Notes under the pieces: generated by a model
Told to the model about the DNA's origin: nothing
Database searches by the model: none
Seen by the model: the letters and a program-made list of their open reading frames with translations, nothing else
Shown here: one piece after another, positions 26,661-47,843 of the stretch
Layout: each line of letters starts with the position of its first letter
Position numbering within the stretch: position 1 is the stretch's first letter
Position numbers and translations under genes: made by a program
Source of the DNA: an uncultured Clostridia bacterium
GTDB taxonomy: Bacteria > Bacillota > Clostridia > TANB77 > CAG-465
Direction: 5' to 3'
NCBI GenBank assembly: GCA_948562205.1
Contig: CAOYAN010000002.1
Coordinates: forward strand, 42,660 to 106,659
DNA length: 64,000 bases

Positions 26661-26687
26661 ACCTCTTAAAAAGTATTTCATATAATA
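26661..26687 (+). promoter_or_regulatory. candidate sigma-K-type promoter (AC-N16-CATATAATA) in front of the yabG 5' segment
   Basis: CATATAATA at ~26679-26687 fits the sigma-K -10 consensus CATAnnnTA, with an AC dinucleotide 16 nt upstream. An AGAGGTGG ribosome-binding site and a TTG start codon follow. Confidence 0.3.
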
Positions 26688-26705
26688 CTTTAGAGGTGGT
26701 TTTTT

Positions 26706-26848
26706 TGGATACTTTTAAAGTGGGAGATATAGTAGCAAGACGATCATATAACTATGATGTATTATTTAGGATAACAAATTTAAATAATGGAATTGCAGAC
26801 CTTGTTGGAATATCTGTAAGAATAGTTGCAGATGCACTAGTAGTCTGA
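26706..26848 (+). CDS. yabG: yabG 5' segment (first ~47 codons of the sporulation-specific protease gene, terminated at the element junction)
   Basis: TTG start with an AGGTGG ribosome-binding site; encodes MDTFKVGDIVARRSYNYDVLFRITNLNNGIADLVGISVRIVADA(LVV*). This matches the YabG N-terminus as I recall it (B. subtilis MQFQIGDMVARKSYQMDVLFRI...VRLIADS). The ORF caller extended it upstream to ATG 26654. Confidence 0.75.
26828..26837 (+). other. left attachment/crossover core GCAGATGCAC (attL)
   Basis: A 10-bp sequence identical to 56773-56782 at the other end of the element, preceded by AATAG at both ends. It lies exactly where colinearity with YabG breaks. Confidence 0.65.
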
Positions 26849-27444
26849 TGACAGATTTTCCAACAATATCTAAATTGTATAGTGAAATCAATGAAAAATA
26901 CTTTAATAATAAGTTTATAAGTGTTAATAGTAAATACGTTTCTGAATTATTTAATAAAGTAAGAGAGAAAAATATAAATACGAAAATATCAATCGTTATT
27001 GATAAAGAGCCACCATTAGAACTTTTAGAAAGTGAAGATTTAATTGATAAAATTCAATATTATAGAGTATTGAATAATATTCCAAAAACTAAAATGGCAA
27101 ACTTAATAGGAGTGGATGCAGAGACATATTCAAATTATGAAAAAAAGAGAATTCCATTTGTAAATCCTGTATACGTTAATATTCTATTAGAAGAATTAAA
27201 TATTAAAGAGAAAATAGAAATACCAGAGTTTATTAAATTTATTGAGGAATATCCACTTCCCAAAATAATAAATATTCTTAAAGATGAGATGATAACTAAA
27301 TCCGATTTTATTAAGAAGAGTGGCATAAGTAGGTATGCACTTGATAGTTGGATTAAGAAAAATGGAAATCAAAAAATACAGGCCTGTATGTATGAAAAAC
27401 TATACTTATATTGGAAAAAGTATAAAGGATATGGAAAAGAGTGA
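26848..27444 (+). CDS. HTH-domain protein at the left end of the element (no ribosome-binding site; in frame with the recombinase ORF across the predicted circular junction)
   Basis: Two HTH-like segments (KTKMANLIGVDAETYSNYEKKR and ITKSDFIKKSGISRYALDSWIKK). Its ATG overlaps the yabG-segment stop, and there is no Shine-Dalgarno sequence upstream. Confidence 0.4.
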   Translation: MTDFPTISKLYSEINEKYFNNKFISVNSKYVSELFNKVREKNINTKISIVIDKEPPLELLESEDLIDKIQYYRVLNNIPKTKMANLIGVDAETYSNYEKKRIPFVNPVYVNILLEELNIKEKIEIPEFIKFIEEYPLPKIINILKDEMITKSDFIKKSGISRYALDSWIKKNGNQKIQACMYEKLYLYWKKYKGYGKE

Positions 27445-27448
27445 TTAT

Positions 27449-28306
27449 ATGGAAGAAACAAAATACATATCAATTAATGAATTAGAAGATTTTAAAAATC
27501 ATCCATATAAAGTTACTGAAGATGAGAAATTACAAGAGTTAGTTGAAAGTATAAAAATTAATGGTGTTTTATCTCCAATCATTGTTAGAAAAAAAGAAGA
27601 TAAATATGAAATAATATCAGGTCATAGAAGGAAGAAAGCTTGTATGTTAGCTAATATAAAAGAAATTCCTTGTATAGTAAAAGATTTAAATGATAATGAG
27701 GCAACTATATTAATGGTTGATAGTAATATACAAAGAGAAGAAGTCTTACCTAGTGAGAAAGCTTTTGCTTATAAAATGAAATTAGATGCTCAAAAACATC
27801 AAGGTGTAAGAAAAAATATAACTTCTGTCCGAGATGAACAGAAGTTAAAAATTACAACTAGAGATAAAATAGCTTTAGAAGTTGGAGAAAGTTCATCTAA
27901 TATTAGAAGATACATTAGGCTAACTAATTTAGTAAAAGAACTTTTAGATTTAGTTGATAATAAAAAAATAGCTTTAAGTCCAGCGGTTGAGCTTTCGTAT
28001 CTAAGTGAAAAAGAGCAAAAAAGAATATATCAAAATATAGAATTTTTAGATATTACACCTTCATATTCTCAAACAATTCGTATGAAAAAATTATCACAAT
28101 TAAATAAACTTACTTTTGAAAAAATAGATGATATAATGTTGGAGGAAAAACCTAATCAAGTTGAAAAAATAAAATTAAATTCAGCAAGATTAAAAAAAGT
28201 ATTACCTAAAAATATATCTAGCGAAAAGCAAATAGAAGATTACATTATAAAATGTATAGAAAGCGTAAAAAAAAATAAAAGATTAGATTTAGAAAATGAA
28301 AGATAA
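27449..28306 (+). CDS. ParB/Spo0J-like nuclease-domain protein
   Basis: ParB box GVLSPIIVRKKEDKYEIISGHRRKKAC followed by a helical DNA-binding region. Start taken at Met39, which has an AAGAGTGA ribosome-binding site. Confidence 0.7.
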   Translation: MEETKYISINELEDFKNHPYKVTEDEKLQELVESIKINGVLSPIIVRKKEDKYEIISGHRRKKACMLANIKEIPCIVKDLNDNEATILMVDSNIQREEVLPSEKAFAYKMKLDAQKHQGVRKNITSVRDEQKLKITTRDKIALEVGESSSNIRRYIRLTNLVKELLDLVDNKKIALSPAVELSYLSEKEQKRIYQNIEFLDITPSYSQTIRMKKLSQLNKLTFEKIDDIMLEEKPNQVEKIKLNSARLKKVLPKNISSEKQIEDYIIKCIESVKKNKRLDLENER

Positions 28307-28350
28307 TAGAGGATAAAAACTCTATTATTTTTTTGTTTGAAAGGAGTTGT

Positions 28351-29160
28351 ATGGATAGTGATGAAGAGAGAAAATTAGATTTATTTAAGATAAATGAAAC
28401 ACTAACATACAGGTTTTATCAAATGCCAAAAGAATTATTTAGGAATCCATTATATAAAGATAAATTATCTTTGGAGGCTAAAGTAACTTATACACTATTG
28501 CTTGATAGATTGGAGCTGTCAAGAATAAATAAATGGTTTAATGAGAATGGGGAGATATACTTAATTTATACAAGGCAAGAACTTATAAATGAGTTAAAAA
28601 TATCTAGGACAACAGCTTCCAAAGTGTTTAGTGAATTAAAGAAATGTAATCTAATAAAAGAGGAAAGACTAGGACAGGGAATGGCAAATAGAATTTATAT
28701 AGGTAAAATGCAATCAGAAGATTTGGAAAAATTTAAAGAGAAAACTTTCAGAAGTCCAAAAGAAGAACTTCTAGAAGTCCAAAATAGAATTTCTAGAAGT
28801 CTAAAAGAAAACACTAATAATACTGATATAAATAATACTGATTTTAATATTTATAATAGTGAAGATAAAATTTTTTTTGCAGATAGAGTTTCTTTAAAAA
28901 TGAAAGAACTAAATAATTTAGTTGAACAATATGACATTGAAAAAACAGCTAAAATAATTGTAGCATTAGATTTATATAAAAAATCTAGTGGTAAAATGTA
29001 TGTTAGCGATTATAATGCTATGTTAAATTGGGTAATAAATAAAGTTTCAAGAGATGAAAAAAAAGAGATGGAAGGTAATTTTAAAAGAAGTAATATTAGA
29101 TATAAAAATTATGAACAAAGAGAATATGATGACATAGAGTCTTTTTATGACAATATATGA
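28351..29160 (+). CDS. replication initiator protein A, N-terminal-domain family (RepA_N) of firmicute conjugative elements
   Basis: LTYRFYQMPKELFRNPLYKDKLSLEAKVTYTLLLDRLELSRINKWFNENGEIYLIYTRQELINELKISRTTASKVFSELKK is the characteristic RepA_N signature. Confidence 0.7.
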   Translation: MDSDEERKLDLFKINETLTYRFYQMPKELFRNPLYKDKLSLEAKVTYTLLLDRLELSRINKWFNENGEIYLIYTRQELINELKISRTTASKVFSELKKCNLIKEERLGQGMANRIYIGKMQSEDLEKFKEKTFRSPKEELLEVQNRISRSLKENTNNTDINNTDFNIYNSEDKIFFADRVSLKMKELNNLVEQYDIEKTAKIIVALDLYKKSSGKMYVSDYNAMLNWVINKVSRDEKKEMEGNFKRSNIRYKNYEQREYDDIESFYDNI

Positions 29161-29177
29161 TAAGAGGAGAAGTAATT

Positions 29178-29597
29178 ATGGGAGAAGTAATTGTAGAAAT
29201 AAGGGGAAATAAATTTTCTGAAATAGATATAGATAATATGCTTATAGATTTTATTATGTTAGGAGAAAATGTATATTATAAAAATCAGAAAAATATTGAA
29301 AAGCAGGTAAAAGCTTTTGTAAAAAAATATAAAAGAGATGGTATGAATATTATAACTAAAAAAAGACATTTAAAGCAATTTTTAAACTCTGCTAAATTGA
29401 TTTATCAATTAACAGGGTTTTATTCATATAAAAATACTTATGATAAATATGTATATACATTAAATCAGAATCTAAAAGGAAGTAAAGTATATTTACATTT
29501 AAAAGATGAAAAAGAATTAGTAGTAATATATAATTCTATATCGAGTTTTTTGGAAAGTTGGTTTATTCATAGAAGGTGGGAGGATTTGGTTAAATGA
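29178..29597 (+). CDS. hypothetical protein
   Basis: AAGAGGAGAAG ribosome-binding site before ATG 29178; no motif. Confidence 0.3.
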   Translation: MGEVIVEIRGNKFSEIDIDNMLIDFIMLGENVYYKNQKNIEKQVKAFVKKYKRDGMNIITKKRHLKQFLNSAKLIYQLTGFYSYKNTYDKYVYTLNQNLKGSKVYLHLKDEKELVVIYNSISSFLESWFIHRRWEDLVK

Positions 29598-29950
29598 AAG
29601 AAAATGAAATAACAATTTTATATAAAAAAGTAGATGAGAATCCGAAAGTTTTGAAAATAAAAAATACTTTAGAAGAAAAGCAAAAGTTAGTTGGTGGACT
29701 TATTGAAGTAGTACCATATATAGATAATATGCTAATTATTTGTAATGAAGAAGGAAAAATACATAATTTAGAAGAAAATATTAGATTTAGTAATGATTAT
29801 ATTGCAGGAGATTTTTTTGTAATAGGTGATGATTATGAAAATGGAGATTTCAAGTCTTTAACTAATGAAGAAATAAGAAGAGCTAAAAATGATATAAGAA
29901 ACAGAAGTGTACATTATATTAAAATGTATAATGTATTAGAGAATGAATGA
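29594..29950 (+). CDS. DUF3846-like small protein (paralog of 32762..33100)
   Basis: ITILYKKVDENPKVLKIKNTLEEKQKLVGG parallels ITILKRPNKPPEIIKIPKKLKNMAKLVDG in the later ORF. This family is common in clostridial conjugative elements. Confidence 0.4.
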   Translation: MKENEITILYKKVDENPKVLKIKNTLEEKQKLVGGLIEVVPYIDNMLIICNEEGKIHNLEENIRFSNDYIAGDFFVIGDDYENGDFKSLTNEEIRRAKNDIRNRSVHYIKMYNVLENE

Positions 29951-30509
29951 TTTGAAAATAAATATTGAAGAAAAACCTAAATCTAATATAAAAAGTGGAA
30001 TAATTATTAAGTCAAAAGAGGACATATATAATATGTCAGAAATACAAGAAATAAAAAATGCAATACAAGAGTACCTTATTTTAATTGGGATGAATAATAG
30101 AAATGAAGTAAGAAATGTAAATCTTATTGGTATAGGAAAAAGTAATTTAATACATTTAGACAGTAAAGATATTATCAGAACAGCATTGATAAATGCTTCA
30201 GATAAAGTAATAATGGTGCATAATCATCCCTCAAATAATACAGAGCCTAGTAGTGCAGATAAACATATTACAAATGTTACAAGTAAAATGTTAGAAGTAT
30301 TTAATGTAAAGTTATTAGATCATATTATAGTAACAGACACAGAATGTGTTAGTATGAAAGAATTGGAAAAAATAAACGAGAATTATGAAGATAATAAACT
30401 TGGATTGCTAGATAAAGGTATTTTGTTAGAAGAAAATATTAGATTAAAGGAAAAATTGAAAAAAAATAATAAAAGTAGAAAAATGAAAATGGAAGAAAGG
30501 GAAATATAA
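29943..30509 (+). CDS. RadC-like JAB/MPN-domain protein
   Basis: JAMM motif ...DKVIMVHNHPSNNTEPSSADKHIT... Confidence 0.7.
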   Translation: MNDLKINIEEKPKSNIKSGIIIKSKEDIYNMSEIQEIKNAIQEYLILIGMNNRNEVRNVNLIGIGKSNLIHLDSKDIIRTALINASDKVIMVHNHPSNNTEPSSADKHITNVTSKMLEVFNVKLLDHIIVTDTECVSMKELEKINENYEDNKLGLLDKGILLEENIRLKEKLKKNNKSRKMKMEEREI

Positions 30510-30575
30510 ATAAAAGGAGGAGATTTTATTTGAATAATAAAATATTAAGAACTTTATATTTTCTAGGTGTTGTAA

Positions 30576-31496
30576 ATGGAAAATAAATATAGTACTGAAG
30601 AATATAAAAAGATAAAAGATAAAGAAAGAGAAGATTTAAAAGATACTCTAAATCAAGGAATAAAAGATGCCTTAAATTCTGAAAGATATAAAAACTTTCT
30701 TAATATAATGAGTAGATGTCATAATTATAGTTTTACTAATTCGCTACTTATATCACTACAAAATGAAAATGCTACACTTGTTAAATCTTTTACTGATTGG
30801 AAGAAAGACAAGGTTAGCATAAATAAGAATGAAAAAGGAATAAAAATATTTTGTCCTGTAAAACAAGTTTTTGTAGAATACCAAAAAGATGATAAAGGTA
30901 GAGTAGCATTAGATGAAAAAGGGGAAAAAATAGAAAAAGGAAAAACTGAAAGAACTACTTTTAAAGTGGGGAGAGTATTTGATATTTCTCAGACTAATGC
31001 TGATAGAGAAAAATACGAATTAAAAAAAGAGAGTGATGAAAAAATTTTAAATAAGGATCAAATAATATCAACTTTAGAAAAAGTTAGCGGAATAAAAATT
31101 AACTTTAAAAATAGTTTAGGTAGAGCAAATGGATTATTTTACCCTGAACAGCAAAAAATCGAAATAAGAGCTAATATGGGAGATATAAAAACTATTTCAA
31201 CCTGTGTTCACGAAGTTGCACACTCATTACTTCATAATAAAAATAGTAAATTAAATTTGTCTAAAGAGCAAAAAGAATTTGAGGCGGAAAGTGTAGCTTA
31301 TGTTGTATGTAAAAACTTAAATGTAGATTCTAAGGAAAATAACTTTTTATATTTAGCTAACTGGGTAGGTAAAGAAGATATATCTGATTTTAAAGATTCA
31401 TTAGATAGAATACAAAAGACAAGTAATGATATTTTAAAATATTTTGAGAAAGAAAATAGTAAGAAATTTGAAAAACAAGTACAAAACGAGATGTAA
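30576..31496 (+). CDS. ArdC-like antirestriction protein (N-terminal ssDNA-binding domain + HExxH metalloprotease-like domain)
   Basis: N-domain NYSFTNSLLISLQNENATLVKSFTDWKK; C-domain CVHEVAHSLLH. Confidence 0.65.
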   Translation: MENKYSTEEYKKIKDKEREDLKDTLNQGIKDALNSERYKNFLNIMSRCHNYSFTNSLLISLQNENATLVKSFTDWKKDKVSINKNEKGIKIFCPVKQVFVEYQKDDKGRVALDEKGEKIEKGKTERTTFKVGRVFDISQTNADREKYELKKESDEKILNKDQIISTLEKVSGIKINFKNSLGRANGLFYPEQQKIEIRANMGDIKTISTCVHEVAHSLLHNKNSKLNLSKEQKEFEAESVAYVVCKNLNVDSKENNFLYLANWVGKEDISDFKDSLDRIQKTSNDILKYFEKENSKKFEKQVQNEM

Positions 31497-31583
31497 GTTT
31501 TTTGAAGGACAAGATTCGCAAATGTCGGCAAAATGCCACCATTTACATCTTGTTAGGAAAATTTCCTAAGACCTTTTTAGGAG

Positions 31584-31877
31584 GTGGATATGAAAAAAAT
31601 AACAATACGAGTAACAGATGAGATGAACGACAAATTATTAAATGAATCTAAAAAACTTAATATAAGTAAGAATGCATATATAAATATTTTGTTTACTAAA
31701 AGAAAAGTAAATATATTTGATGGAAAAAAAGATATATTGTTAGAGCTAAATAGAATAGGTAATAATTTAAATCAGTTAACAAAACTTGCAAACTCTCATA
31801 TTATTAATGTTGTAGATTTAAAAGATATAAAAAGTGAGTTAAAAAATATATGGCAATTTTTAAGTGCATTAAAGTAA
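31584..31877 (+). CDS. mobC: MobC-family mobilisation (relaxosome accessory) protein
   Basis: RHH-like N-terminus followed by the NRIGNNLNQLTKLAN signature of MobC proteins. Confidence 0.65.
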   Translation: MDMKKITIRVTDEMNDKLLNESKKLNISKNAYINILFTKRKVNIFDGKKDILLELNRIGNNLNQLTKLANSHIINVVDLKDIKSELKNIWQFLSALK

Positions 31878-32758
31878 AAAAATACAATCTTGGAGAATTG
31901 CTGAAGTATGTTACTAGAGTTGATAAAACAAAAGATGAATTAGTATATGCGAAAGATTGTAGTGTGGAAACAGCAAAATATGAATTTGAGTTTGTAAAGA
32001 AGTTATACAATAAGAAAGATAAAAGACAATATTATCATTTTGCACAATCATTTAGTCCTGAAGATAAAATAACACCACAACTTGCACATCAAATTGGAAA
32101 AGAAATGTTAAAGTGTTTTGATGGGTTTCAAGTAGTGATGGGAACACATATTGATAAAGAACATTTGCACAATCATTTTGTTATAAATAGTGTGAGTTTT
32201 GAAAATGGACTGAAGTATCATCAAAGTAAAAAAGATTTAGAAAATATAAAAATACTTTCTAACGAACTTTGCAAAAAGTATAATTTAAGAACTATAAAAA
32301 TTGAAGCAGGAAAATGTAGTAAATATATGGACAAAAATGAATGTCATATAACAAATAAAACAGAAACTGAAAAGCAAAAGCTAATTAAATCAATAAGCAA
32401 GTGTATTAAGTCCTCTAAATCAAAAGAACAATTTATATTTAAAATGAATGAGTTAGGTTACAAGGTAAAGTGGCAAGATACAAGAAAGTATATAACATAT
32501 ACAACACCTGATGGTATGAAGTTTAGAGATAAAAGATTACACAATGTTAAATATACAAAAGAAAGAATGGAAATATATTTTGATAAATTATCAAAAAGAA
32601 ATAAGGTAAAAAATACAATTATTGGAGTTAGTTCAATAAATAAAGATACAAGTAATAAACAAAAAGATGGTTTAGATACAAAAGAATATTCAGATATAGC
32701 AAAAAAAGATTATATTAAGAAAAATGAAAATGCAAGTAGCATTGAATGGGAGGAGTAA
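31850..32758 (+). CDS. relaxase/mobilisation nuclease (MobA/VirD2-type, PF03432-like)
   Basis: YYHFAQSFSPED motif and the histidine cluster HIDKEHLHNHFVIN (HxDxxHxHxH...N). Confidence 0.7.
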   Translation: MAIFKCIKVKKYNLGELLKYVTRVDKTKDELVYAKDCSVETAKYEFEFVKKLYNKKDKRQYYHFAQSFSPEDKITPQLAHQIGKEMLKCFDGFQVVMGTHIDKEHLHNHFVINSVSFENGLKYHQSKKDLENIKILSNELCKKYNLRTIKIEAGKCSKYMDKNECHITNKTETEKQKLIKSISKCIKSSKSKEQFIFKMNELGYKVKWQDTRKYITYTTPDGMKFRDKRLHNVKYTKERMEIYFDKLSKRNKVKNTIIGVSSINKDTSNKQKDGLDTKEYSDIAKKDYIKKNENASSIEWEE

Positions 32759-32761
32759 TAT

Positions 32762-33100
32762 ATGAGTAGAGATTATATGATTACTATTTTAAAAAGACCA
32801 AACAAGCCTCCTGAAATTATAAAAATACCTAAAAAATTAAAAAATATGGCTAAATTAGTTGATGGTATTGTAGAAGAAATTAGATATGAAAAAGTAATAG
32901 TAGTATACAATAGAAATCAAGATGATTTTAAATTAAAAAGAAATAAAGTTTTTAAGGATTTAACATTGAAAGGGAACATACTTATTGTAGGAAACTATGA
33001 AGAAGAGGGAGATATTAGATCATTAAAGAAAAAAGAAATAGTAGAATATATGAGAAAAATCAAATATAAACAAAAGGAAGTCCAAAATGAAGTTGAATAG
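32762..33100 (+). CDS. DUF3846-like small protein (paralog of 29594..29950)
   Basis: See the paralog at 29594..29950. Confidence 0.4.
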   Translation: MSRDYMITILKRPNKPPEIIKIPKKLKNMAKLVDGIVEEIRYEKVIVVYNRNQDDFKLKRNKVFKDLTLKGNILIVGNYEEEGDIRSLKKKEIVEYMRKIKYKQKEVQNEVE

Positions 33101-34928
33101 AAAAGTAATAGCTTTCTTTATATGTACAATTTTAATATTACCTTTTTCGATGTATATAGGATATTACTTAAATTCTATGTTAGTATCTAAGGATATTACA
33201 TTTGAATTTGTTGAAATATTAAAAAGTTTAACAAATGGTAAGATATTAAGTTTAATATTTTGTATTCAAGCATTATTTATGATGCTGTTTTTTATGCTCA
33301 TTTTTGCACAAAAATATGGAATGTATAAAGCAAATACAGAAATGATTACAACTAATATTTCTATTCCAAAACATTACGGTCAAGGACAATATGGAACTAG
33401 TAGATTTGCAACAAATAAAGAATTTGATAGAACATATACTAAATTAAAGTTTAATAAAAATCAAGATTATTTATCACAGTCAATATCTAATGGTGGAGTA
33501 GTTGTAAAACATAATTCTAAAAGAGATTATGAAGAAATTAGTGTAGTATCAGATAATAAACATTTAATTTGTTTAGGTAATACAGGAGCAGGTAAAACGA
33601 GAAGAATACTTATAGAAAGTTTATGCATTTTAGGACTTTCAGGAGAGAGTATTATAGTTTCAGATCCTAAAGGAGAATTATATCAAATGACATCACAATT
33701 CTTTAACAAATTAGGTTATGAAGTGAATGTAATAGATTTTAAAACTCCTAAAAAATCTAATAAGTACAACTTTTTACAACCTATAATAAATGCAATTCAA
33801 AATGATGATATAAAAAGAGCAGAAGATTTGACTTGGGATTTAGTAGAAAATATAGTACAAAAAACTAATTCTAATTCTGATCCTTTATGGGAGAATGGAG
33901 AAAAAAGCATTATAGCAGGTAGTATAATGACAGTACTATTAGAAAACAAAAATAATAGAGATTATCAGAATTTAACCAATGTTTATAGCTTTATATCTAA
34001 TATGTGTCAATCAGATGAAAATGGCTTTATGCCTTTAACAGAGTATATAGAGAATTTACCTGATGAAAACCCAGCAAAAAAGATTTTTTCTATTTCAACA
34101 ATAGCTCCTGAAAAAACAAGGAGTTCTTTTTTTACTTCAGCACTTTCAACACTAAGATTATTTAGTAGTAATAGTATTTATACGATGACAAATGATAGTG
34201 ATTTTAGATTAGAAGATATAGGAGAAAAGAAATGTATAAGATATATTATTCTACCCGATGAAAGAACTACATTTTATACACTTGCTACATTATTTGTTAG
34301 TCAACAATATCAAGCATTAGTTAATTTAGCAGATAGTAGAGGTGGAAAACTTAAAGTTAGAAATAACTTTATTTTAGAAGAATTTGGTAACTTTACTAAA
34401 ATTGCTAATTTTGAAAATATGCTAACAGTCAGCCGTGGAAGAAATATAAGATTTAGTATGTTTTTACAATCTTTTTCTCAACTTGAAACAAAGTATTCAA
34501 AGACAGTAGCACAAAATATTATGGATAATGCACAAGTATGGATTTATCTTAGAACTTCAAGCTATGAAACAGCAGAGATAATAAGTAAAAAATTAGGAAG
34601 TTACACAGTTTCAGTAAATAGTCAAAGTAATTCAGTAAGTAGAAATAGTGATAATATAAGTGAATCTATGAATCTTATAGGAAGAAATTTACTTACACCT
34701 GATGAAGTATTAAGATTTGAAAGTCCTTATGCTTTGGTATTGCAATCAGGTTATTTTTCGGCAAAAACTGAGATACCTGATTTATCTAAATGGCAGTTTA
34801 ATAAAGTACTAGGACTTGGAGATGAAGAAGAAAATAGAATAATAAGAGAGAAAACAGAAAATGAAAGAAAAGTTTTAGAAGAAGAGAAAATAAAACTTTG
34901 GAAAATATGGGAAGATTACAAGTATTAA
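33087..34928 (+). CDS. type IV secretion coupling protein (VirD4/TraG family ATPase)
   Basis: Two N-terminal TM helices; Walker A LGNTGAGKTRR; a Walker B-like acidic stretch; TraG/TraD-type C-terminal region. Confidence 0.75.
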   Translation: MKLNRKVIAFFICTILILPFSMYIGYYLNSMLVSKDITFEFVEILKSLTNGKILSLIFCIQALFMMLFFMLIFAQKYGMYKANTEMITTNISIPKHYGQGQYGTSRFATNKEFDRTYTKLKFNKNQDYLSQSISNGGVVVKHNSKRDYEEISVVSDNKHLICLGNTGAGKTRRILIESLCILGLSGESIIVSDPKGELYQMTSQFFNKLGYEVNVIDFKTPKKSNKYNFLQPIINAIQNDDIKRAEDLTWDLVENIVQKTNSNSDPLWENGEKSIIAGSIMTVLLENKNNRDYQNLTNVYSFISNMCQSDENGFMPLTEYIENLPDENPAKKIFSISTIAPEKTRSSFFTSALSTLRLFSSNSIYTMTNDSDFRLEDIGEKKCIRYIILPDERTTFYTLATLFVSQQYQALVNLADSRGGKLKVRNNFILEEFGNFTKIANFENMLTVSRGRNIRFSMFLQSFSQLETKYSKTVAQNIMDNAQVWIYLRTSSYETAEIISKKLGSYTVSVNSQSNSVSRNSDNISESMNLIGRNLLTPDEVLRFESPYALVLQSGYFSAKTEIPDLSKWQFNKVLGLGDEEENRIIREKTENERKVLEEEKIKLWKIWEDYKY

Positions 34929-34941
34929 GGAGGGATAATCT

Positions 34942-35190
34942 ATGGATTTAAATAGTTCAATATTAGTTACAGGAACAATAAAACTACTAAATGATTTAAT
35001 AACATCACTTACTGGTATATCAATACTTGTTGCAACTGTTATGGGAATATATTATTTAGCAAGAAAATCATCTTGTGATGAGCAGGAAGGTAAAATGCTT
35101 ACAAGAAGATTATTTGTAGCAATAGGATGTTGTGTACTAATAACAATTATAAAAGTTTTAATACAAGTAATTACAAGTTATTATACATAG
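34942..35190 (+). CDS. small membrane protein (T4SS-associated)
   Basis: 82 aa with two TM segments, positioned between the coupling-protein gene and the VirB6-like gene. Confidence 0.3.
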   Translation: MDLNSSILVTGTIKLLNDLITSLTGISILVATVMGIYYLARKSSCDEQEGKMLTRRLFVAIGCCVLITIIKVLIQVITSYYT

Positions 35191-35199
35191 GAGAAAATA

Positions 35200-36042
35200 A
35201 TGGAAAAGTTACTTACAAATTTATTTATTTCAATAATAAAATCAGCAGATAATACAATAAATTATGCTTTTGAAAATATGGTAAAAATTTGTTTTAATGC
35301 AGAAGAATATTTAACAGAGTTGTTATCTATACAAGTTTTAGATTTTACTATGTTAAAGTCTGTTATTAGAAATTTTGCAATAGCACTTATTATTCTAAAA
35401 TTTATAAAAAAGGGAGTTGAAATGTATCTTACTTGGACTGAGGGAAGTTCAGATACACCAATTCATATATATGTCTTATACTTTATACGAAGTATGGTAC
35501 TAATTTTAGTATTTCCATTTGTATATGATATTTTTGTAAATATTGGTACTGACTTTGCAAATCAATTACTTACAAGCTTAAATTTATCGTATCAAGAAGG
35601 ACTAACAGCGAATTTAGCTACAATATCAGCAGTTGGACTTAATACAGCAATACTTGGATTAATAGAACTGATAATGCTAATTCTACTTTATATACAAATG
35701 CTTATGCGAGGTGTAGAAATGTTTGTACTTAAACTTAGTTTTCCTATATTTTGTGTTGGATTATTAGATAGCAATAAAGGTGTATTTGTACCTTTTATAA
35801 AAAAGTTTTTACAATGTACTTTTACAGTCATAATTCAAATTATTCTTGCAAAAATAGATATACTACTCTTATCATCTTCACAATTAATAATGGGGATAGC
35901 AGTATTACTTGTTGCACTTAGAACACCTAAATTTTTACAGGAATTTATGCTTGTAGCAGGTAATGGATCAAGTGGAATTTCAAATGCAGTTTTAACAACA
36001 TCAAAAGTAATTGAACTTAAAGGACAAATAACTAAAAAATAA
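35200..36042 (+). CDS. polytopic membrane protein, VirB6/TrbL-like
   Basis: At least five hydrophobic segments; position and size match VirB6-type channel subunits of Tn1549/Tn916-family elements. Confidence 0.45.
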   Translation: MEKLLTNLFISIIKSADNTINYAFENMVKICFNAEEYLTELLSIQVLDFTMLKSVIRNFAIALIILKFIKKGVEMYLTWTEGSSDTPIHIYVLYFIRSMVLILVFPFVYDIFVNIGTDFANQLLTSLNLSYQEGLTANLATISAVGLNTAILGLIELIMLILLYIQMLMRGVEMFVLKLSFPIFCVGLLDSNKGVFVPFIKKFLQCTFTVIIQIILAKIDILLLSSSQLIMGIAVLLVALRTPKFLQEFMLVAGNGSSGISNAVLTTSKVIELKGQITKK

Positions 36043-36251
36043 TGTATGTAATATATGAAATTATTTCTATACTTAGAGTATGGATTATTCCACTTGGCGT
36101 AACACTAAGGTGTATATATTGCTTAATTCAAATAATATATAATGAAGATGAAAGAAAAGTAAATACTAAAAGAATGATTAATGCTATACTATTTTTGATA
36201 GTATCAGAGGTTGTATTTGTAATTCAGGATATAATTGAATATTATTATTAA
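36042..36251 (+). CDS. small membrane protein
   Basis: 69 aa with two TM segments. Confidence 0.25.
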   Translation: MYVIYEIISILRVWIIPLGVTLRCIYCLIQIIYNEDERKVNTKRMINAILFLIVSEVVFVIQDIIEYYY

Positions 36252-36299
36252 ATATGATATTATAATATAAATAATAATTTGTTGAGGCGAAGTGAGAAT

Positions 36300-38162
36300 A
36301 TGAATTACAAAAAATATTTAATAGATAATGAATATCTAATGAGAGAATGGAATTATGAAAAAAATGTTGGATTAGATCCTAAACTATTAACTCTTAAAAG
36401 TCATAAAAAAATATGGTGGAAATGTAAAAACGGTCATGAATGGCAAGTAAGCATAGATAGCAGAAGCAAAGGGACAAGATGCCCTTATTGTAGTAATAGA
36501 CGAGTTCTAAAAGGTTATAATGATCTTGCTACTATTAATCCACAACTTGCAAAAGAATGGAATTATGAAAAAAATGGTTACTTAAAACCAGATATGGTTG
36601 TTGCAAATAACGGAAAAAAAGTATGGTGGAAATGTAGTAAGAATCATGAATGGGAAGCAACTATAATTAGTAGAAATAGAGGGGCAGGTTGTCCCTATTG
36701 TACAAATCAAAAAATATTAAGTAAATATAATGATTTAGAAACATTAAATCCACAACTTGCAAAGGAATGGAACTATGAAAAAAATGGTGATTTAAAACCA
36801 GATATGGTTGCTGTAAATAGTATTAAAAAAGTATGGTGGAAATGCAGTAAGGGTCATGAATGGGAAGCACTTGTATATAGTCGCAATAATGGAAATGATT
36901 GTCCAATTTGTTCAAAAGAATTACAAACTTCTTTTCCAGAGCAAGCAATTTATTTTTATATAAAAAAGTTATTTCCAGATGCAATAAATGGAGATCGTCA
37001 TTTGAAAATGGAATTGGATATTTTTATTCCATCTCAAAAAGTTGCTATTGAATATGATGGAATATTTTGGCATAAAAATTCTAAAAGTGATGAAAGAAAA
37101 AATAGCCTTTGTAAGAAACATAAGATAATTCTATTTAGAGTAAAAGAAAATATAAAAAAAGAAAGCTTAGAAAATGATTATTTAAAAATTATCCCTTGTT
37201 CATATTCAGACCAAGGAATTGAACACGCAATAAAATATATAGTGAACTATTTAGGTAAAAATATAGATATAAATTTAAATAGAGATCGTTCTTCAATATA
37301 TGAATCTTTTGTAATGACTCAAAAAGTTCAATCATTAATGCATAGTAATCCACAACTTGCAAAGGAATGGAATTATGAAAAAAACGGTGATTTAAAACCA
37401 GACATGGTTACAGTAAATAGTGGTAAAAAAGTTTGGTGGATATGTCATAAAGGTCATGAATGGCAAGCAATAATTAGAAATCGAAATTATGGAAATGATT
37501 GCCCAATTTGTGCAAGTCAAAAAGAACTTAAAGGATATAATGATCTTGTTACAATTAATCCATTACTTGCAAAAGAATGGAACTATGAAAAAAACGGTGA
37601 TTTAAAACCAGATATGGTTATGGCAAATAGTGGCAAAAAAGTATGGTGGAAATGTAGTAAGAATCATGAATGGGAAGCAATTATTAGTAGTAGAAATAAA
37701 GGTGCTGAATGCCCTTATTGTTCAGGCAGAAAAAGAATTGTTGGACATAATGATCTTGCTACTATTAATCCACAACTTACAAAAGAATGGAATTATGAAA
37801 AAAATGGTGATTTAAAACCTAATGTAGTATCAATAAATAGTAAGCTAAAAGTATGGTGGAAATGTAGTAAGAATCATGAATGGGAAGCAAGCATTATTAA
37901 TAGAAATAGAGGAACTGGTTGTCCTTATTGTTCAGGTAGAAAAGCAATTATTGGCTATAATGATCTTGTTACTATTAATCCACAACTTGCAAAAGAATGG
38001 AATTATGAAAAAAATGGTGATTTAAAACCAGATATGGTTATGGCGAATAGCGGTAAAAAGGTTTGGTGGAAATGTGAAAAATGTGGATATGAATGGGAAA
38101 CAAAAATATATAATAGGTCTTATGGTAGAGGATGTCCAACTTGTAAAAAAAACAAGCACTAA
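36300..38162 (+). CDS. zinc-ribbon repeat protein (7 x ~70-aa CxxC...CxxC repeats) with embedded Vsr/DUF559-like PD-(D/E)xK nuclease-fold domain
   Basis: Seven copies of EWNYEKNGDLKPDMV..NSGKKVWWKCSKNHEWEA.I.SRN.G..CPYCS. Between repeats 3 and 4 sits ...MELDIFIPSQKVAIEYDGIFWHKNSKSDERKN..., resembling the E-x-D...AIEYDG..WH core of Vsr/DUF559 endonuclease-like domains. Confidence 0.6.
   Translation: MNYKKYLIDNEYLMREWNYEKNVGLDPKLLTLKSHKKIWWKCKNGHEWQVSIDSRSKGTRCPYCSNRRVLKGYNDLATINPQLAKEWNYEKNGYLKPDMVVANNGKKVWWKCSKNHEWEATIISRNRGAGCPYCTNQKILSKYNDLETLNPQLAKEWNYEKNGDLKPDMVAVNSIKKVWWKCSKGHEWEALVYSRNNGNDCPICSKELQTSFPEQAIYFYIKKLFPDAINGDRHLKMELDIFIPSQKVAIEYDGIFWHKNSKSDERKNSLCKKHKIILFRVKENIKKESLENDYLKIIPCSYSDQGIEHAIKYIVNYLGKNIDINLNRDRSSIYESFVMTQKVQSLMHSNPQLAKEWNYEKNGDLKPDMVTVNSGKKVWWICHKGHEWQAIIRNRNYGNDCPICASQKELKGYNDLVTINPLLAKEWNYEKNGDLKPDMVMANSGKKVWWKCSKNHEWEAIISSRNKGAECPYCSGRKRIVGHNDLATINPQLTKEWNYEKNGDLKPNVVSINSKLKVWWKCSKNHEWEASIINRNRGTGCPYCSGRKAIIGYNDLVTINPQLAKEWNYEKNGDLKPDMVMANSGKKVWWKCEKCGYEWETKIYNRSYGRGCPTCKKNKH
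36345..38162 (+). repeat. 210-bp tandem coding repeats (copies starting ~36345, 36555, 36765, 37365, 37575, 37785, 37995)
   Basis: The unit ...ccacaacttgcaaaagaatggaattatgaaaaaaatggtgatttaaaaccagatatggtt... recurs with a 210-nt period. Confidence 0.85.
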
Positions 38163-38172
38163 ATAGCATATA

Positions 38173-38406
38173 TTGAATAATTACCAATTACAATTTGTAG
38201 AATTGGAGGTATCTATGAAAAAGGAAAAAATATTTAGAGTTTTAACACTTGTCTTTACAATTTTAACATTTATAGGCGCATTTTATGTGCTTATCAATAA
38301 AGGACAAGTAAATGCAGGATATGCTGTAATACCTAGTTTGTTTAATGTCATTTTTTCGCAATTAAGCATTGCTGAGAGAAATAAGAATAATGAGAACAAA
38401 GAATAA
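38173..38406 (+). CDS. small membrane protein
   Basis: 77 aa with two TM segments. Confidence 0.25.
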   Translation: MNNYQLQFVELEVSMKKEKIFRVLTLVFTILTFIGAFYVLINKGQVNAGYAVIPSLFNVIFSQLSIAERNKNNENKE

Positions 38407-38476
38407 TTAAACAAATTAAAATTTATAGAGAAGATACAATAAAAAAGTATCTTCTTTTTTTATTTAAGGAGGAGTT

Positions 38477-38788
38477 ATGAACAAAGAAGATAAAGTATAT
38501 GTACCTAAAAATGTTAAGAAGCAATTAGAATTTTTTAGGGGATTTGGAGTAAAAGAATTGATAATAATATTAATAGTAGGAATTATAAGTATTATACCAA
38601 CAATCTTATTATATAAGTATGGACATCAAGCATTTGCACTAACGTTATTTTTAGTTACTGTTGCTACTACAATTATGCTAGTGATAAAAGATGAGAATAA
38701 TGTATCTTTTTTACAACAACTAAAACTTGTATGTAAGAGTATATTTATGCAGAAAAATTTTAAATATGGGAAGAGAAACAAAAGATGA
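38477..38788 (+). CDS. small membrane protein (PrgI/TcpD-like position)
   Basis: 103 aa with two TM segments, immediately upstream of the VirB4 module. Confidence 0.3.
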   Translation: MNKEDKVYVPKNVKKQLEFFRGFGVKELIIILIVGIISIIPTILLYKYGHQAFALTLFLVTVATTIMLVIKDENNVSFLQQLKLVCKSIFMQKNFKYGKRNKR

Positions 38789-39375
38789 ATATACTAGAAA
38801 AAATATTTGGAAATAATACTTTAAGTTGTGATGAAGAACTAAATATTTTAGATATAGAAGATGATATTTTTTATTCACTAGATAATAAAGCCTCAATTTA
38901 TATTAAAGTAGAACCTATACCTTTTGAATATTTAAGTAGTAATGAAAAAAGTATTGTAGTAAAAAGATTAACTAGAGAACTTGCAGGAGAAAGAGATGTT
39001 ATAAAAATTATAACTATGTCTTTACCTATATCAACAGCAGAGGTAGATAAATATTTAGATGAAAAGAGAAACAGTGCTAAAAGTTCTTTTAAAAGAAGTA
39101 TGTTACTTAAACAAATAGATGATATAAATAAGTTAAGTTATAGAGGAGAAATGATCGAAAAACAAGTTATAATTCAGTTATTCCAAAATAGTGTTGATAA
39201 TGTGGACGAAAAACTTCAAAAAAGGGCTAAAGAGTTTGTTATTAAATTACAAAATGCGGGTATAAATAGTCATATTCTAAATAAACTAGAAATAATAAAA
39301 TTATTTAATTCCTTTCTTAATATGAGTTTAAAAGAAGAACATATAAATGATGTTTGGAGTGATTATGATGAATAG
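38785..39375 (+). CDS. hypothetical protein (T4SS-associated)
   Basis: Translationally coupled to its neighbours; no motif. Confidence 0.3.
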   Translation: MNILEKIFGNNTLSCDEELNILDIEDDIFYSLDNKASIYIKVEPIPFEYLSSNEKSIVVKRLTRELAGERDVIKIITMSLPISTAEVDKYLDEKRNSAKSSFKRSMLLKQIDDINKLSYRGEMIEKQVIIQLFQNSVDNVDEKLQKRAKEFVIKLQNAGINSHILNKLEIIKLFNSFLNMSLKEEHINDVWSDYDE

Positions 39376-41155
39376 AGAAAAAAATACTAAAATAATAAAT
39401 GCACTCATACCACTTTCGGGGCTTAGCTATGAAAGTGGTATGATTAGAATTGGAGATATGTATTCAAAAGTTGGAGGAATAACAGATTATCCAACTACTC
39501 TACCACTTGGAATAAGTAGTAAATATAATAAAATTCCTTTTTCATATACAACACATATTTTTATACCTGAGAATACAGGAATATTTACTAAAGGAATAGC
39601 AAAGGGGATAAGGCAAGCAGAAATGAGAGGCTATGAAACTAAGGATGCTAGCATTGAAATACTTTCTAAAAATGAAGCAAATTCAGGACGAGAAATGATA
39701 GAAAAATTACAAGATGGAGATACAGTAGGTTATATGATTAATATGTCTATGATATTTGGGGAAACCCCTGAAGAAGTAAAAAATAGATATAGTAGATTTG
39801 AAAATCAAATAGAAGGTTTACAAATGAGATTTAGAGGAATGTCGCACTTATCAAGGCAATCTTTTAAAACATTAGCTCCTTTTTATACAATAGATCCGGA
39901 AATAGAAAATATATTTAAAAGAAATATACTATTTTCTGATTTTTGTAAATGTTTTGCATTTGCAGGAAATCAAATAACTAAAGAAGGCTATTATTTTGGT
40001 GTTGACAATATGAATGGACTATTACTACATAATTCTTGGGAGAGAAAAAATAATATTAATGGTAATATTGTTGTTATAGGGGAAAGTGGAAGTGGTAAGA
40101 CAACAGTTTGTAAGCATATATTGTTTAATGAATATCTAATAGGAACAAAATTAATAGTTATTGATCCGGAAGGAGAATATGTAGATTTTGCCAAAAAACT
40201 AAAAGGTAATGTAATAGATATTTCAGGAGGAAATGAAAATATAATTAATCCACTACAAATAAGAATACATATAGATGACAAAAATAGTATAAAAAATTCC
40301 TATGATTTTCATATACAGAAAATAAGGAATTTTTTTAATATCTTGTTACCTGAGCTTAGATATACAGAACTTAATCTATTAATTAGGGAGTTAGAAAAAA
40401 CTTATACTAAATTTAAAATAAACAGAGAAACTGATTTTACTAAATTAAGTAATGAAGAATATCCTACATTAAATGATTTATATAAGACTATAAATTATAG
40501 CTTTAATAAAATTGATAAAAATGATAACTATTATTTAATGTATATAGTGATATTAGATTTTGTAAAAGAGCTTACAAGTGGGATATACTCAAAAATGTTT
40601 AATAATCATACAAATGTTAATTTGGATAATGATATAACAGTTTTTAATGTATCAGGGGTACAAAATGTTGAAGACAATATAAAAAAGGCTTTATATTATA
40701 ACTTACTTAATTTTTGTTGGGAGCAAATAACTAATAATAAAAAGAAAAATGAAAATACATTTTTAATATTAGATGAAGCACATTTAATGCTAGATAGTAG
40801 AATCAAGGATACTATGATTACATTAAAGACTATTTCTAAAAGGTGCAGAAAGTACAATGCTAACTTAATGATTATTACTCATTCTCTTGTTGATATGCTT
40901 GATAATGAATTAAGAAAAGAGGGACAAGGAATTTTGGAAAATGCAAACTATAAAATATTACTTGGAACAGATGGGAAAAATTTAGAAGAATCAAGAAGTA
41001 TTTTTAAACTTACTGAACAAGAACTAGATATACTAGCTTCTAAAAAGAAAGGGAGTGGTATATTCATAGCAGGAAGTTTGAAGACGCCTATTAATTTTAA
41101 AATTTTAAAGTATGAGAAAGAATTTGTTTTAGGAGAAAATAATAATGGAGCTTAA
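39347..41155 (+). CDS. VirB4/TrbE-type conjugal transfer ATPase
   Basis: Walker A GESGSGKTT and Walker B FLILDEAH; ~600 aa, typical of Gram-positive VirB4 homologues (Tn916 Orf16/TcpF-like). Confidence 0.8.
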   Translation: MMFGVIMMNREKNTKIINALIPLSGLSYESGMIRIGDMYSKVGGITDYPTTLPLGISSKYNKIPFSYTTHIFIPENTGIFTKGIAKGIRQAEMRGYETKDASIEILSKNEANSGREMIEKLQDGDTVGYMINMSMIFGETPEEVKNRYSRFENQIEGLQMRFRGMSHLSRQSFKTLAPFYTIDPEIENIFKRNILFSDFCKCFAFAGNQITKEGYYFGVDNMNGLLLHNSWERKNNINGNIVVIGESGSGKTTVCKHILFNEYLIGTKLIVIDPEGEYVDFAKKLKGNVIDISGGNENIINPLQIRIHIDDKNSIKNSYDFHIQKIRNFFNILLPELRYTELNLLIRELEKTYTKFKINRETDFTKLSNEEYPTLNDLYKTINYSFNKIDKNDNYYLMYIVILDFVKELTSGIYSKMFNNHTNVNLDNDITVFNVSGVQNVEDNIKKALYYNLLNFCWEQITNNKKKNENTFLILDEAHLMLDSRIKDTMITLKTISKRCRKYNANLMIITHSLVDMLDNELRKEGQGILENANYKILLGTDGKNLEESRSIFKLTEQELDILASKKKGSGIFIAGSLKTPINFKILKYEKEFVLGENNNGA

Positions 41156-41828
41156 AGCAATCTTAGCAATATTAGAAACTTTTAAAAATGAAGAGTTAAG
41201 AAACAACATTATAATGGGTGTAACACTACTTGTTGCTATAATAATACTTATAATTTTAATTCCTATTTATATACTTTTAAATCCTATTGAAAGTATGAAA
41301 AACTTTTTTAGTGATGATGAACAAGCAATAGTTAAAAATATACAAAATGATTATGGAAGTATAAATTATGGAATGGGTAATATAACTATTAATTCTAAAT
41401 TAGGATTTCCACTTGAAAATATTGATAAGGTTGTAATTACAGCAGAATATGGAATGTACGATCCTTGGAATACAGGAAATAATACAATGCACACAGGAAT
41501 AGATTTATCAGGGATGCATAGAGATAATGTACTTGCAGTAGAAAAAGGAGAAGTAGTATTTGCAGGAGTACAAAGTGGATATGGAAATTGTGTAGAGTTG
41601 AAACATGATATTGATGGAATAGAAATATATACATTTTATGCTCATTTAAGTAGTATAGGCGTTTGCGAAGGACAATTAGTTGAACAAGGTTATATTATAG
41701 GAAAAGAGGGTGGAGATCCTTATACAGATCAAAATGCTGGTAATAGTACAGGACACCATTTGCATTTTGAAGTAAGAACAAGTAAAGATTATGGTAATGA
41801 TGTTAATCCATATGGATTTATATTTTAG
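41145..41828 (+). CDS. M23-family peptidoglycan metalloendopeptidase (conjugation cell-wall hydrolase)
   Basis: N-terminal TM; HTGIDL...and HHLHFEV zinc-ligand motifs of LytM/M23. Confidence 0.7.
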   Translation: MELKAILAILETFKNEELRNNIIMGVTLLVAIIILIILIPIYILLNPIESMKNFFSDDEQAIVKNIQNDYGSINYGMGNITINSKLGFPLENIDKVVITAEYGMYDPWNTGNNTMHTGIDLSGMHRDNVLAVEKGEVVFAGVQSGYGNCVELKHDIDGIEIYTFYAHLSSIGVCEGQLVEQGYIIGKEGGDPYTDQNAGNSTGHHLHFEVRTSKDYGNDVNPYGFIF

Positions 41829-41847
41829 TTAGAGGGGGAGATTTAAT

Positions 41848-42752: not shown

Positions 42753-42763
42753 GGAGAATAAGT

Positions 42764-43423: not shown

Positions 43424-43424
43424 A

Positions 43425-44453: not shown

Positions 44454-44463
44454 GGTAAATGTT

Positions 44464-45009: not shown

Positions 45010-45067
45010 AAGGGGATTGACTTATAAAATTAAATTTTTATATAATTATATATAAGGATGTGATTTT

Positions 45068-45703: not shown

Positions 45704-45763
45704 AAATTTAAGTGGGTAAATGGAAACATTTACTCACTTGTGTTATATAGGGAGGAAATAGAA

Positions 45764-47809: not shown

Positions 47810-47843
47810 ATATATAAATAAAATCAAGATATTATAGGAAAAT

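Follow-up and report, generated by a model that had tools for sequence, protein, structure and literature searches.

Which protein does a recombinase gene encode when the attachment (att) site of its element lies within the gene, and which form of the protein carries out integration? This question is raised by a 64,000-nucleotide stretch of DNA from an uncultured Clostridia bacterium (GenBank assembly GCA_948562205.1, contig CAOYAN010000002.1, positions 42,660 to 106,659; hereafter the window), in which the gene yabG is interrupted by a predicted integrative conjugative element (ICE). The last gene of the element encodes a large serine recombinase (LSR), and the first open reading frame (ORF), ORF198, encodes a protein with two helix-turn-helix (HTH) domains. 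We lean towards a reading in which the attP of the element is located in the linker of one composite LSR-HTH frame, integration splits the frame, excision rejoins it, and the ~820-aa protein encoded by the circle is the integrating enzyme. The features on which this reading depends are as follows.

26838..56782, + strand: ICE of ~30 kb, between the att cores, inside yabG
26705..26848, + strand: yabG 5' fragment, with a TTG start, a Shine-Dalgarno (SD) sequence AGAGGTGG at 26692-26699, and 44 YabG codons followed by LVV* from the left arm of the element
26828..26837, + strand: attL core GCAGATGCAC, with the crossover dinucleotide GA placed by inference at 26831-26832
26848..27444, + strand: ORF198, 198 aa, a low-confidence linker of ~60 aa followed by two Cro/C1 (XRE) HTH domains, with its ATG in the P' arm
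54915..56792, + strand: LSR gene, with Resolvase, Recombinase, and Zn-ribbon domains and a likely start at 54927 or 54930
56773..56782, + strand: attR core GCAGATGCAC, within the LSR codons S-R-C-T
56783..57501, + strand: yabG 3' fragment, which begins PEYDLKHISKEE...

The break in yabG falls after codon 44. The 5' fragment has the C-terminus ...RIVADA-LVV*, with its TGA at 26846-26848. When 26705..26837 and 56783..57501 are joined, a 283-aa protein is obtained, which is matched by Pfam Peptidase_U57 in one stretch (profile positions 1-276 of 280, E 2.7e-97). The predicted attB junction reads ...AGAATAGTTGCAGATGCACCAGAATATGA. Intact yabG genes of ~60 related metagenome-assembled genomes (MAGs) encode RI[IVL]ADAP... 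at the equivalent point, and two intact yabG genes of related MAGs match the junction exactly (...ADAPEYDLKHISKEE). Judged from the sequence, removal of the element would restore an intact full-length YabG ORF, as expected of an intervening element. Contigs from four other sequencing runs or samples carry the identical attL junction, which, together with the match of the restored YabG, indicates that the insertion is real and is not an assembly artefact. The hosts are uncultured gut Clostridia, and the relatives include Clostridium sp. CAG:465 and CAG:1219.

The two junctions read ...agaatagttGCAGATGCACtagtagtcTGATGacag (attL) and ...tacaataGCAGATGCACcagaataTGA (attR). Exact copies of GCAGATGCAC are found only twice in the 64 kb, at attL and attR. 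When one mismatch is allowed, the window contains five such sites, compared with 0.65 expected, and none of 100 shuffles gave five. The original prediction, which was made from the letters of the window, had proposed a core shared by the two junctions; the two sites stand, but the true identity core is shorter, at most 8 bp (GCAGATGC), a correction that leaves the frame unaffected. The attL of relatives reads GATGC-GA-TAG and that of the window GATGC-AC-TAG, indicating that the crossover lies within GCAGATGC.

The LSR is recognized by Pfam PF00239 (2.7e-32, residues 12-163), PF07508 (1.1e-16, residues 206-335), and PF13408 (1.5e-10, residues 354-412), and by the PHROGs integrase family phrog_95 (2e-105). 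A YSRKS motif is visible where the catalytic serine is expected. A start at 54927 or 54930 is preferred because a GGAG SD sequence is located there and homologues begin MMKE or MKEK. The identification of a recombinase therefore holds, while its length is probably 621 or 620 aa rather than the ~625 aa proposed originally, and the length of the fusion is hence about 820 aa. As also proposed, the right core is positioned in the last codons of the LSR gene. The 3' end of the frame reads AGC AGA TGC / ACC AGA ATA TGA (NSRCTRI*), in which the last three codons and the stop are yabG sequence in another reading frame.

In the circle, the frame takes a different course. When 26838..27444 is placed after 54915..56782, the result is an ORF of 824 codons without interruption (...NSRC-TSSL-MTDFPTISK...), which ends at the stop of ORF198. 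This bears out the claim that the recombinase frame would continue across the joint into ORF198 with no intervening stop, with a likely product of ~820 aa given the start at 54927 or 54930. The attP is thus situated within coding sequence, and the integrated and circular forms are predicted from the sequence to encode different C-termini, as had been anticipated: the integrated product terminates on host codons (...CTRI*), and that of the circle is ~200 codons longer. Frame continuity is independent of the exact crossover position within GCAGATGC.

The predicted attP junction of the circle reads ...CAACAGACTACAATAGCAGATGCACTAGTAGTCTGATGACAG. Two inverted repeats flank its core.

56755..56768, + strand: P arm inverted repeat TGTCAACAGACTAC
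26840..26853, + strand: P' arm inverted repeat GTAGTCTGATGACA, which includes the stop of the yabG 5' fragment and the start of ORF198 (TGATG)

TGTCAACAGACTAC and GTAGTCTGATGACA pair at 13 of 14 positions, and 16 nt separate the 14-bp arms in the reconstructed attP. The site has the imperfect dyad that characterizes serine-integrase att sites, and the centre of the dyad is the GA inside GCAGATGC, where cleavage would be expected to take place.

Agreement of frame across one joint has a prior of one in three, and one explanation for it is coincidence. In that case the LSR would be complete at ~580-600, the tail would be tolerated read-through, and ORF198 would be an independent regulator that starts in the P' arm by chance; the fusion might still be made in the circle, without a selected role. 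We consider this explanation unlikely. It has in its favour that the PHROG and Pfam matches end near residue 575 of the LSR, and that some of the listed LSR homologues have a length of 576-585 aa. Of these, P0007 was examined and is shortened by a frameshift in a decayed element, and among the tails examined only that of the decayed element stops ahead of the att motif, which argues against coincidence. In addition, the 51 codons from the conserved end to the ATG of ORF198 contain no stop, as is the case for only 0.6% of composition-matched shuffles (a fraction of ~0.006); the other two frames over this tail contain 4 and 9 stops.

The tails of relatives follow a common pattern. Most of the 120 closest LSRs run beyond ...INLLNTKI.E..KK into a subfamily-specific motif and then into divergent tails. 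The yabG-targeting LSRs end ...S/G-R-C followed by TRI, TNI, S, ANI..., or SNRRF..., as different yabG alleles would give in the +2 frame, and other groups end LSSEKGSRC, LSSDKVSK, or NVAIRTGEQL, each followed by variable residues. LSR-yabG junctions are seen directly in three loci (L012, L050, and L068; LSR identity to the window 86%, 67%, and 55%, respectively). The divergence of the tails past the motif, together with these junctions, indicates that a stop taken from beyond the att core is the common pattern of the clade. By comparison with the yabG alleles, the tails of the yabG-targeting LSRs are demonstrably host sequence.

On the other side of the element, ORF198 begins without an SD sequence of its own. 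Its ATG (26848-26850) shares TGATG with the stop of the yabG 5' fragment (26846-26848). GGAG, GAGG, and AGGA are absent from the 21 nt 5' of the ATG, while several well-defined starts of the element have them. The original claim that ORF198 has no SD sequence and that its ATG overlaps the yabG stop was therefore correct. For ORF198 itself no promoter could be recognized, and a sigma-70 promoter scan was uninformative, since the counts were close to those of shuffles in this AT-rich DNA. A search for terminator-like sites between the yabG fragment and ORF198 found none. Upstream of yabG, a candidate promoter can be read from the sequence.

26661..26687, + strand: putative sigmaK-type yabG promoter, AC, a 16-nt spacer, and CATATAATA

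This sequence would match the sigmaK consensus of Bacillus subtilis. The same AC...CATAnnnTA arrangement is present upstream of yabG in related loci. Because ORF198 has no SD sequence and no identifiable promoter, the yabG promoter and a strong SD sequence lie upstream, and no terminator-like site intervenes, we infer that ORF198 is expressed by coupling to the yabG fragment. In the integrated state it would then be made only by read-in from the sigmaK-type promoter and termination-reinitiation.

The AlphaFold2 model of ORF198 has a mean predicted local distance difference test score (pLDDT) of 85.8; the N-terminal ~30 residues are of low confidence and the two HTH domains of high confidence. 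Matches to Pfam HTH_3, HTH_19, and HTH_26 are below the curated cut-offs. A Foldseek search of the PDB with the model returned only Cro/C1-type DNA-binding proteins and no described directionality factor; the best examples are P22 c2, 434 Cro, HipB, and SinR (TMt 0.6-0.7, root-mean-square deviation 1.5-3.7 Å). The model thus describes ORF198 as a tandem Cro/C1-type HTH module with five-helix, HTH_3-type domains. Such a module would most likely bind DNA sequence-specifically, either regulating genes of the element or serving as an accessory DNA-binding domain, and it is less likely to be a classical directionality factor.

The close homologues of ORF198 form four 90% clusters, all directly 3' of a yabG 5' fragment with TGATG, one of them in a decayed element (L015, below). 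Across 1.84 billion representatives, exhaustive searching with HMMER yielded 45 members of the family, nearly all of which are standalone proteins of 110-205 aa, and the matches begin at about residue 15-30 of ORF198. The N-termini of the family are MT in 17 of 44 and MA in 7 of 44, as expected if ATG-AC belongs to the conserved P' half-site CTGATGAC. One objection to the original proposal would have been that the homologues are always separate genes with their own ribosome-binding site. This is not what is observed, as family members are found at element-host junctions with no such site. Moreover, read-throughs by the gene caller join the HTH module to 5' fragments of three host genes: yabG (P0004), a membrane-protein-like N-terminal segment (P0161), and a DUF1016 gene (P0170), indicating that the HTH ORF abuts the junction without an intervening stop. 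The KRIGTQL at the N-terminus of P0149, which resembles NRIGTQL of the recombinase tails of another subfamily, was rejected as a further case, since it may equally be the LFKKIK motif of the family itself.

Searches elsewhere extended the family little. A tblastn search with ORF198 and the fused C-terminal module found no matches in INPHARED phages or PLSDB plasmids, and comparison of the family alignment with GTDB representative genomes and IMG/VR gave pattern matches, none of which was confirmed. The family is therefore known here from metagenome contigs only. A profile search of 5.8 billion proteins with a 17-sequence alignment added little, limited by its word pre-filter.

The search for recombinases that carry the ORF198 module in a single ORF, which had been put forward with the original prediction, was positive: the 824-aa fusion as query retrieved P0025 (782 aa), P0031 (780 aa), and P0083 (781 aa) with 44% identity over 97% coverage. 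All three contain Resolvase, Recombinase, Zn_ribbon, and HTH_3/19/26 domains, and their C-terminal ~200 residues align along the whole of ORF198 and its family. The three corresponding 90% clusters have 19, 14, and 11 members, many of them full-length. From these sequences, an LSR with a covalently attached tandem-HTH module can be taken as a genuine protein architecture.

The fused genes are also informative about integration. One fused protein of 780 aa, P0194, recurs identically in 88 indexed blocks of the collection. Four of its loci have in common 10 kb upstream (RepA_N, regulators, a 53-aa ORF, and the fused gene) and exactly 88 bp past the stop. Beyond the 88 bp they diverge into the trmL 3' portion with an ABC transporter and SMC, into trmL with other genes, or into another recombinase gene. 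The shared segment followed by divergence indicates that the P0194 fused gene is intact when integrated, that its att site is located 88 bp beyond the stop, and that there are at least two insertion sites. For the fused contigs L008-L011, the distinction between circle and integrated form was undecidable from the end of homology at the stop; it was the P0194 loci that settled the integrated form for that subtype. In L082, a copy of a fused-type element is located inside another LSR gene (12343-13941), which indicates nested elements or targeting of a recombinase gene.

The original prediction had gone further and suggested that the short and fused proteins constitute a switch between integration and excision. 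The P0194-type elements do not support this, as their fused gene is intact in the integrated state. If these elements are mobile, as two insertion sites suggest, the fused protein must work in both directions. In addition, engineered fusions of an integrase with a directionality factor are locked in excision (PMC12286644), which would be incompatible with stable integration. For ORF198 as a directionality factor itself, the fusion of homologues with an LSR suggests physical cooperation, and the tandem XRE fold and the integrated fused forms point otherwise.

A related explanation assigns the module its role in the integrated state. ORF198, coupled to the yabG fragment, would be made late in the mother cell from the sigmaK-type promoter and would trigger excision, either by serving as directionality factor itself or by activating the recombinase and a 52-aa ORF upstream of it. 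The forespore copy would stay integrated, yabG would be rebuilt when needed, and the fused ORF of the circle would be a by-product or a latch against re-integration. The TGATG overlap, the missing SD sequence, and the unterminated path from yabG all accord with this, as do the AC-16 nt-CATATAATA promoter and strong SD sequence that recur in related loci. The overlap is retained in every yabG-inserted relative, including one at another att site (L001, below), and three independent host-gene-to-HTH read-through fusions show co-directional insertion. Engineered fusions of integrases with directionality factors promote attL x attR and prevent attP x attB (PMC12286644), and in the case of SPbeta, blocked re-integration is reported to stabilize the rebuilt gene (PMC5499854). 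However, the fold is that of tandem XRE HTH domains, with PDB matches solely to Cro/C1-type DNA-binding proteins, and a module active as a directionality factor when fused would make the only recombinase gene of the circle block integration in the recipient. Permanently fused relatives would then never stay integrated, yet they do. A small conserved ORF beside the recombinase is a better candidate for a directionality factor, and TGATG may merely belong to the conserved P' half-site. We therefore judge this explanation improbable.

Returning to the composite frame, a second att-like site lies within it.

56657..56716, + strand: second attP-like site (site 1), in the LSR tail, with core GCAAATGCAC, in which the central GA is replaced by AA

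Site 1 is exactly 84 bp (28 codons) 5' of attR and reads GCAAATGCAC-TAGTAATCTGATGACAGA. Its copy of the P arm is 78% similar, and its P' arm has its own CTGATGACAGA. Site 1 is predicted to be a complete attP-like unit that is inactive in this element. The relative L001 (58% identical) entered yabG via the first unit, and its left end holds the 84-bp segment and an intact second unit with a degenerate core. The HTH ORF of L001 starts at the ATG of the first unit, which overlaps the TGA of the yabG fragment, and the ATG of the second unit is now TTG. The 28-codon segment is thus the recombinase tail in the window and the N-terminus of the HTH ORF in L001, in the same frame in both. The interchangeability of the 28 codons in one frame indicates that the segment behaves as a linker of a single frame. 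In P0109, which belongs to another att-specificity subfamily, the C-terminal 45 aa contain a tandem att-crossing motif (..VANRTGKQLRQ..13 aa..VANRTGEQLQRLL). This suggests that att sites at the 3' ends of recombinase genes are duplicated by a recurrent process.

Several observations weigh against the composite frame and its fused integrase. Frame agreement alone has the one-in-three prior mentioned above, and with the conserved region of the LSR ending at ~575, the tail could be tolerated read-through. Standalone ORF198 relatives far outnumber fused ones at the 50% cluster level, with 43 of 45 representatives shorter than 330 aa. The fused relatives are only 44% identical, use other target sites, and have their att site outside the gene. 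No attP-form contig of this element or its close relatives was retrieved with the 824-aa query, for which the best matches were integrated-form recombinases of 621 and 618 aa. Control by sigmaK and sporulation of the host, which is known only from MAGs, are assumed by analogy with other spore formers. Two loci, L078 and L079, have fused-type HTH modules without a recombinase part, whose linker breaks off into unrelated DNA, one of them in frame with the 5' fragment of a DUF1016 gene. These were considered as attL states and were not used as evidence, as the shared segments are of 0.75 and 1.5 kb, the flanks differ, and they may be deletion remnants.

Some of these observations also speak for coincidence, namely the one-in-three prior, the early end of the conserved region, and the prevalence of standalone relatives. 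The same applies to the residues at the element-host junction, which vary non-synonymously among relatives (TSS, DSS, DNS, DSG, and NGN). Coincidence, on the other hand, does not predict genuine fused homologues that align over the full length of both halves, an ORF198 that lacks an SD sequence in a genome whose well-defined gene starts have one, or an 84-bp segment that is open in the same frame on either the recombinase side or the HTH side. The tail pattern, the fused homologues, and the second att-like site together weaken it.

The remaining alternative concerns transcription and arises from the gene content of the element. Pfam annotation was made via the locus L002, which is 97-99% identical and has ORF lengths equal to those of the window, and identified Relaxase, NikA/MobC, T4SS-DNA_transf/TraG, TrbL_4, ArdcN, and RepA_N; PHROGs matched the ParB and the DnaD/RepA-like protein of the element. 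The gene content accordingly comprises ParB, RepA_N/DnaD-like, RadC, ArdC, MobC/NikA, relaxase, type IV coupling protein, and TrbL, as well as a surface adhesin, regulators, two small sigma-factor-like ORFs, a 52-aa ORF, and the terminal LSR. Since its att sites enclose a relaxase, a coupling protein, and mating-pore components along with an integration module, the element is annotated as an ICE, and the conjugative gene content rules out a prophage. A 689-aa ORF has a hydrophobic signal-like segment at its N-terminus. Another ORF, of 627 aa (36279..38162), contains seven repeat copies with a ~210-nt period (36270-38219; 62-79% identity) and is probably a repeat-domain surface or mating-pair protein. 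Two genes next to the ends of the composite frame are relevant here.

27431..28306, + strand: ParB-like gene, which overlaps the end of ORF198 and is the first of a co-oriented replication/conjugation block
54708..54866, + strand: 52-aa ORF, directly 5' of the LSR gene, candidate directionality factor

A 53-aa ORF occupies the equivalent position in distant relatives, including fused-type elements, and comparison of the small ORFs of L011 and the window found these two sequences clearly similar. As a directionality factor, the conserved 52/53-aa ORF would be a more conventional choice than the HTH module.

All listed ORFs of at least 150 aa are on the + strand from 26848 to ~47800 and from 53657 to 56792, and the right end has the order sigma-factor-like small regulators, small ORF, recombinase. 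Circularization would place the block of ORF198, ParB, replication, and conjugation genes behind this regulatory region. Tn916 requires circularization for the expression of its transfer functions, through promoter formation or transcriptional read-through at the joint, and in Tn5397 and Tn4451 the serine recombinases TndX and TnpX take the place of Int/Xis. The element resembles these in being conjugative or mobilizable, in its terminal recombinase gene, and in co-oriented genes that link the regulatory and transfer ends. It is thus possible, though doubtful as a full account, that the joint serves expression of transfer genes in the circle only, as in Tn916, and that the open frame does no more than avoid polarity or termination at the joint. 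The shared strand of the left and right blocks, the regulators of the right end, the Tn916-like organization, and the absence of any terminator-like site found at the joint are consistent with this account. It leaves unexplained the missing SD sequence, the missing stop, and the permanently fused homologues, and, unlike in the Tn916 family, the joint here re-establishes an open frame as well. Read-through transcription of the joint is compatible with a split composite gene, not exclusive of it, and is likely true as well.

Taken with the composite frame, the evidence would fit the following course of events. An ICE in the style of Tn916/Tn5397 would insert co-directionally in yabG, with its attP inside the flexible linker of a frame that encodes an LSR and a tandem HTH module. 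At attR, the LSR would remain catalytically complete, with every catalytic and DNA-binding domain retained, and would end in a few host codons and a stop from the host. At attL, the HTH module would become a separate 198-aa ORF with its ATG in the P' half-site. Excision would restore both yabG and the ~820-aa ORF, which would be co-directional with the ParB, replication, and conjugation genes. After transfer, the fused ORF would be the sole recombinase gene available in the circle, and the fused protein, made from the circle, would be expected to act as the integrating enzyme. A broader version holds for the whole clade that LSR genes are whole only in the circle, encoding an integrase of ~800 aa, and that integration detaches the HTH module and brings it under the promoter of the interrupted host gene; in the yabG-targeting elements, sigmaK-dependent transcription would then yield the module and so set off mother-cell excision. 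The element would thus sense its integration state, and respond to it, by splitting and rejoining one frame. We regard this version as quite improbable.

Genes rewritten by integration have precedents. The SSV1-type archaeal int gene contains attP and is partitioned on integration, so that the catalytic protein itself is disrupted. The recombinase gene is physically divided in the present element as well, with the difference that only an accessory C-terminal module is detached. Myxophage Mx8 has its attP inside the tyrosine integrase gene, and integration gives a new 3' end and an altered protein (IntP/IntX; PMC6070905). The two systems share an attP within integrase coding sequence. In Mx8, however, the recombinase is a tyrosine recombinase whose C-terminal segment is replaced and not released as an ORF that can be started, and pairs of fused and split homologues, as found here, are not described. 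In mycobacteriophage integration-dependent immunity (Broussard et al. 2013, as summarized in PMC8092301), attP is in the repressor gene, with C-termini that differ and a host-side stop that ends the prophage form. The likeness is the difference at the C-terminus between circular and integrated products; there, a repressor is split and a degradation tag lost through tyrosine integrases, whereas here the split gene is that of a serine recombinase and a folded two-domain HTH module is separated. In engineered proteins, a directionality factor has been joined to the C-terminus of a large serine integrase via a flexible linker (PMC5737554, PMC12286644). Those fusions are artificial, contain a proven directionality factor, and catalyse excision only, whereas the present module is natural and XRE-type, and the fused relatives remain integrated.

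In a non-exhaustive literature search, we found no description of a serine recombinase gene that extends across attP and from which a folded C-terminal module is set free as an ORF of its own. Integration-rewritten genes are already known from Mx8, SSV1, and mycobacteriophage repressors. If the fusion made from the circle is the integrating enzyme, annotations of this clade that are based on integrated copies misdescribe the recombinases, giving them host-derived ends and omitting a DNA-binding module of ~200 aa. Mining of serine integrases for genome engineering would then be affected, as the ORF in a prophage or ICE may not be the attP x attB enzyme. Rewriting of a gene through integration would also become a principle that applies to serine recombinases and conjugative elements, and the fusion would be a natural counterpart to the engineered fusions of integrases with accessory proteins.

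The insertion in yabG also has known parallels. Sporulation-gene elements excised by an LSR include skin in sigK, SPbeta in spsM, gin in gerE, and yin in yabG of C. botulinum V73 (PMC10747680). They share with the present element an interrupted mother-cell sporulation gene, a short direct repeat, an LSR at one end, and an ORF restored by excision, and yin has the same target, yabG. They differ in being prophages or prophage remnants, whereas the present element is conjugative (relaxase, coupling protein, and TrbL), and in that the LSR frame continues across attP into a second gene here. Excision during sporulation is proposed here by analogy only. The yin paper reports prophage-like content, an LSR that adjoins the yabG 5' fragment, and no other insertion in yabG (PMC10747680). 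By that description, yin differs from the present element, in which the LSR gene is the last gene at the yabG 3' end and reads outward through attR.

The only published intervening element of yabG was described as unique (PMC10747680), contrary to the family of yabG-targeting elements found here in MAGs of gut Clostridia. The same yabG codon is hit in other hosts by elements whose LSRs are 55-86% identical (L050, L068, and L012-L014), and yabG is a recurrent target of a conjugative-element family in gut Clostridia. A decayed copy is found in the yabG of another host (L015, a contig of SRR23203962). Its LSR is frameshifted in a poly-A run, its ORF198 is cut after ~30 codons, and other genes and a transposase have taken the place of its interior; the disruption of yabG in this host is presumably permanent. 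In yabG itself, several independent MAGs have an extra C before GG[AG] near codon ~32 (L042, L053 (and L001), and L069; gtt-c-gga, gct-c-gga, and gcg-c-ggg), which puts codons 1 to ~32 in a different frame from the remainder. This could reflect a frameshift common to these genes, programmed +1 frameshifting, or a start at another position.

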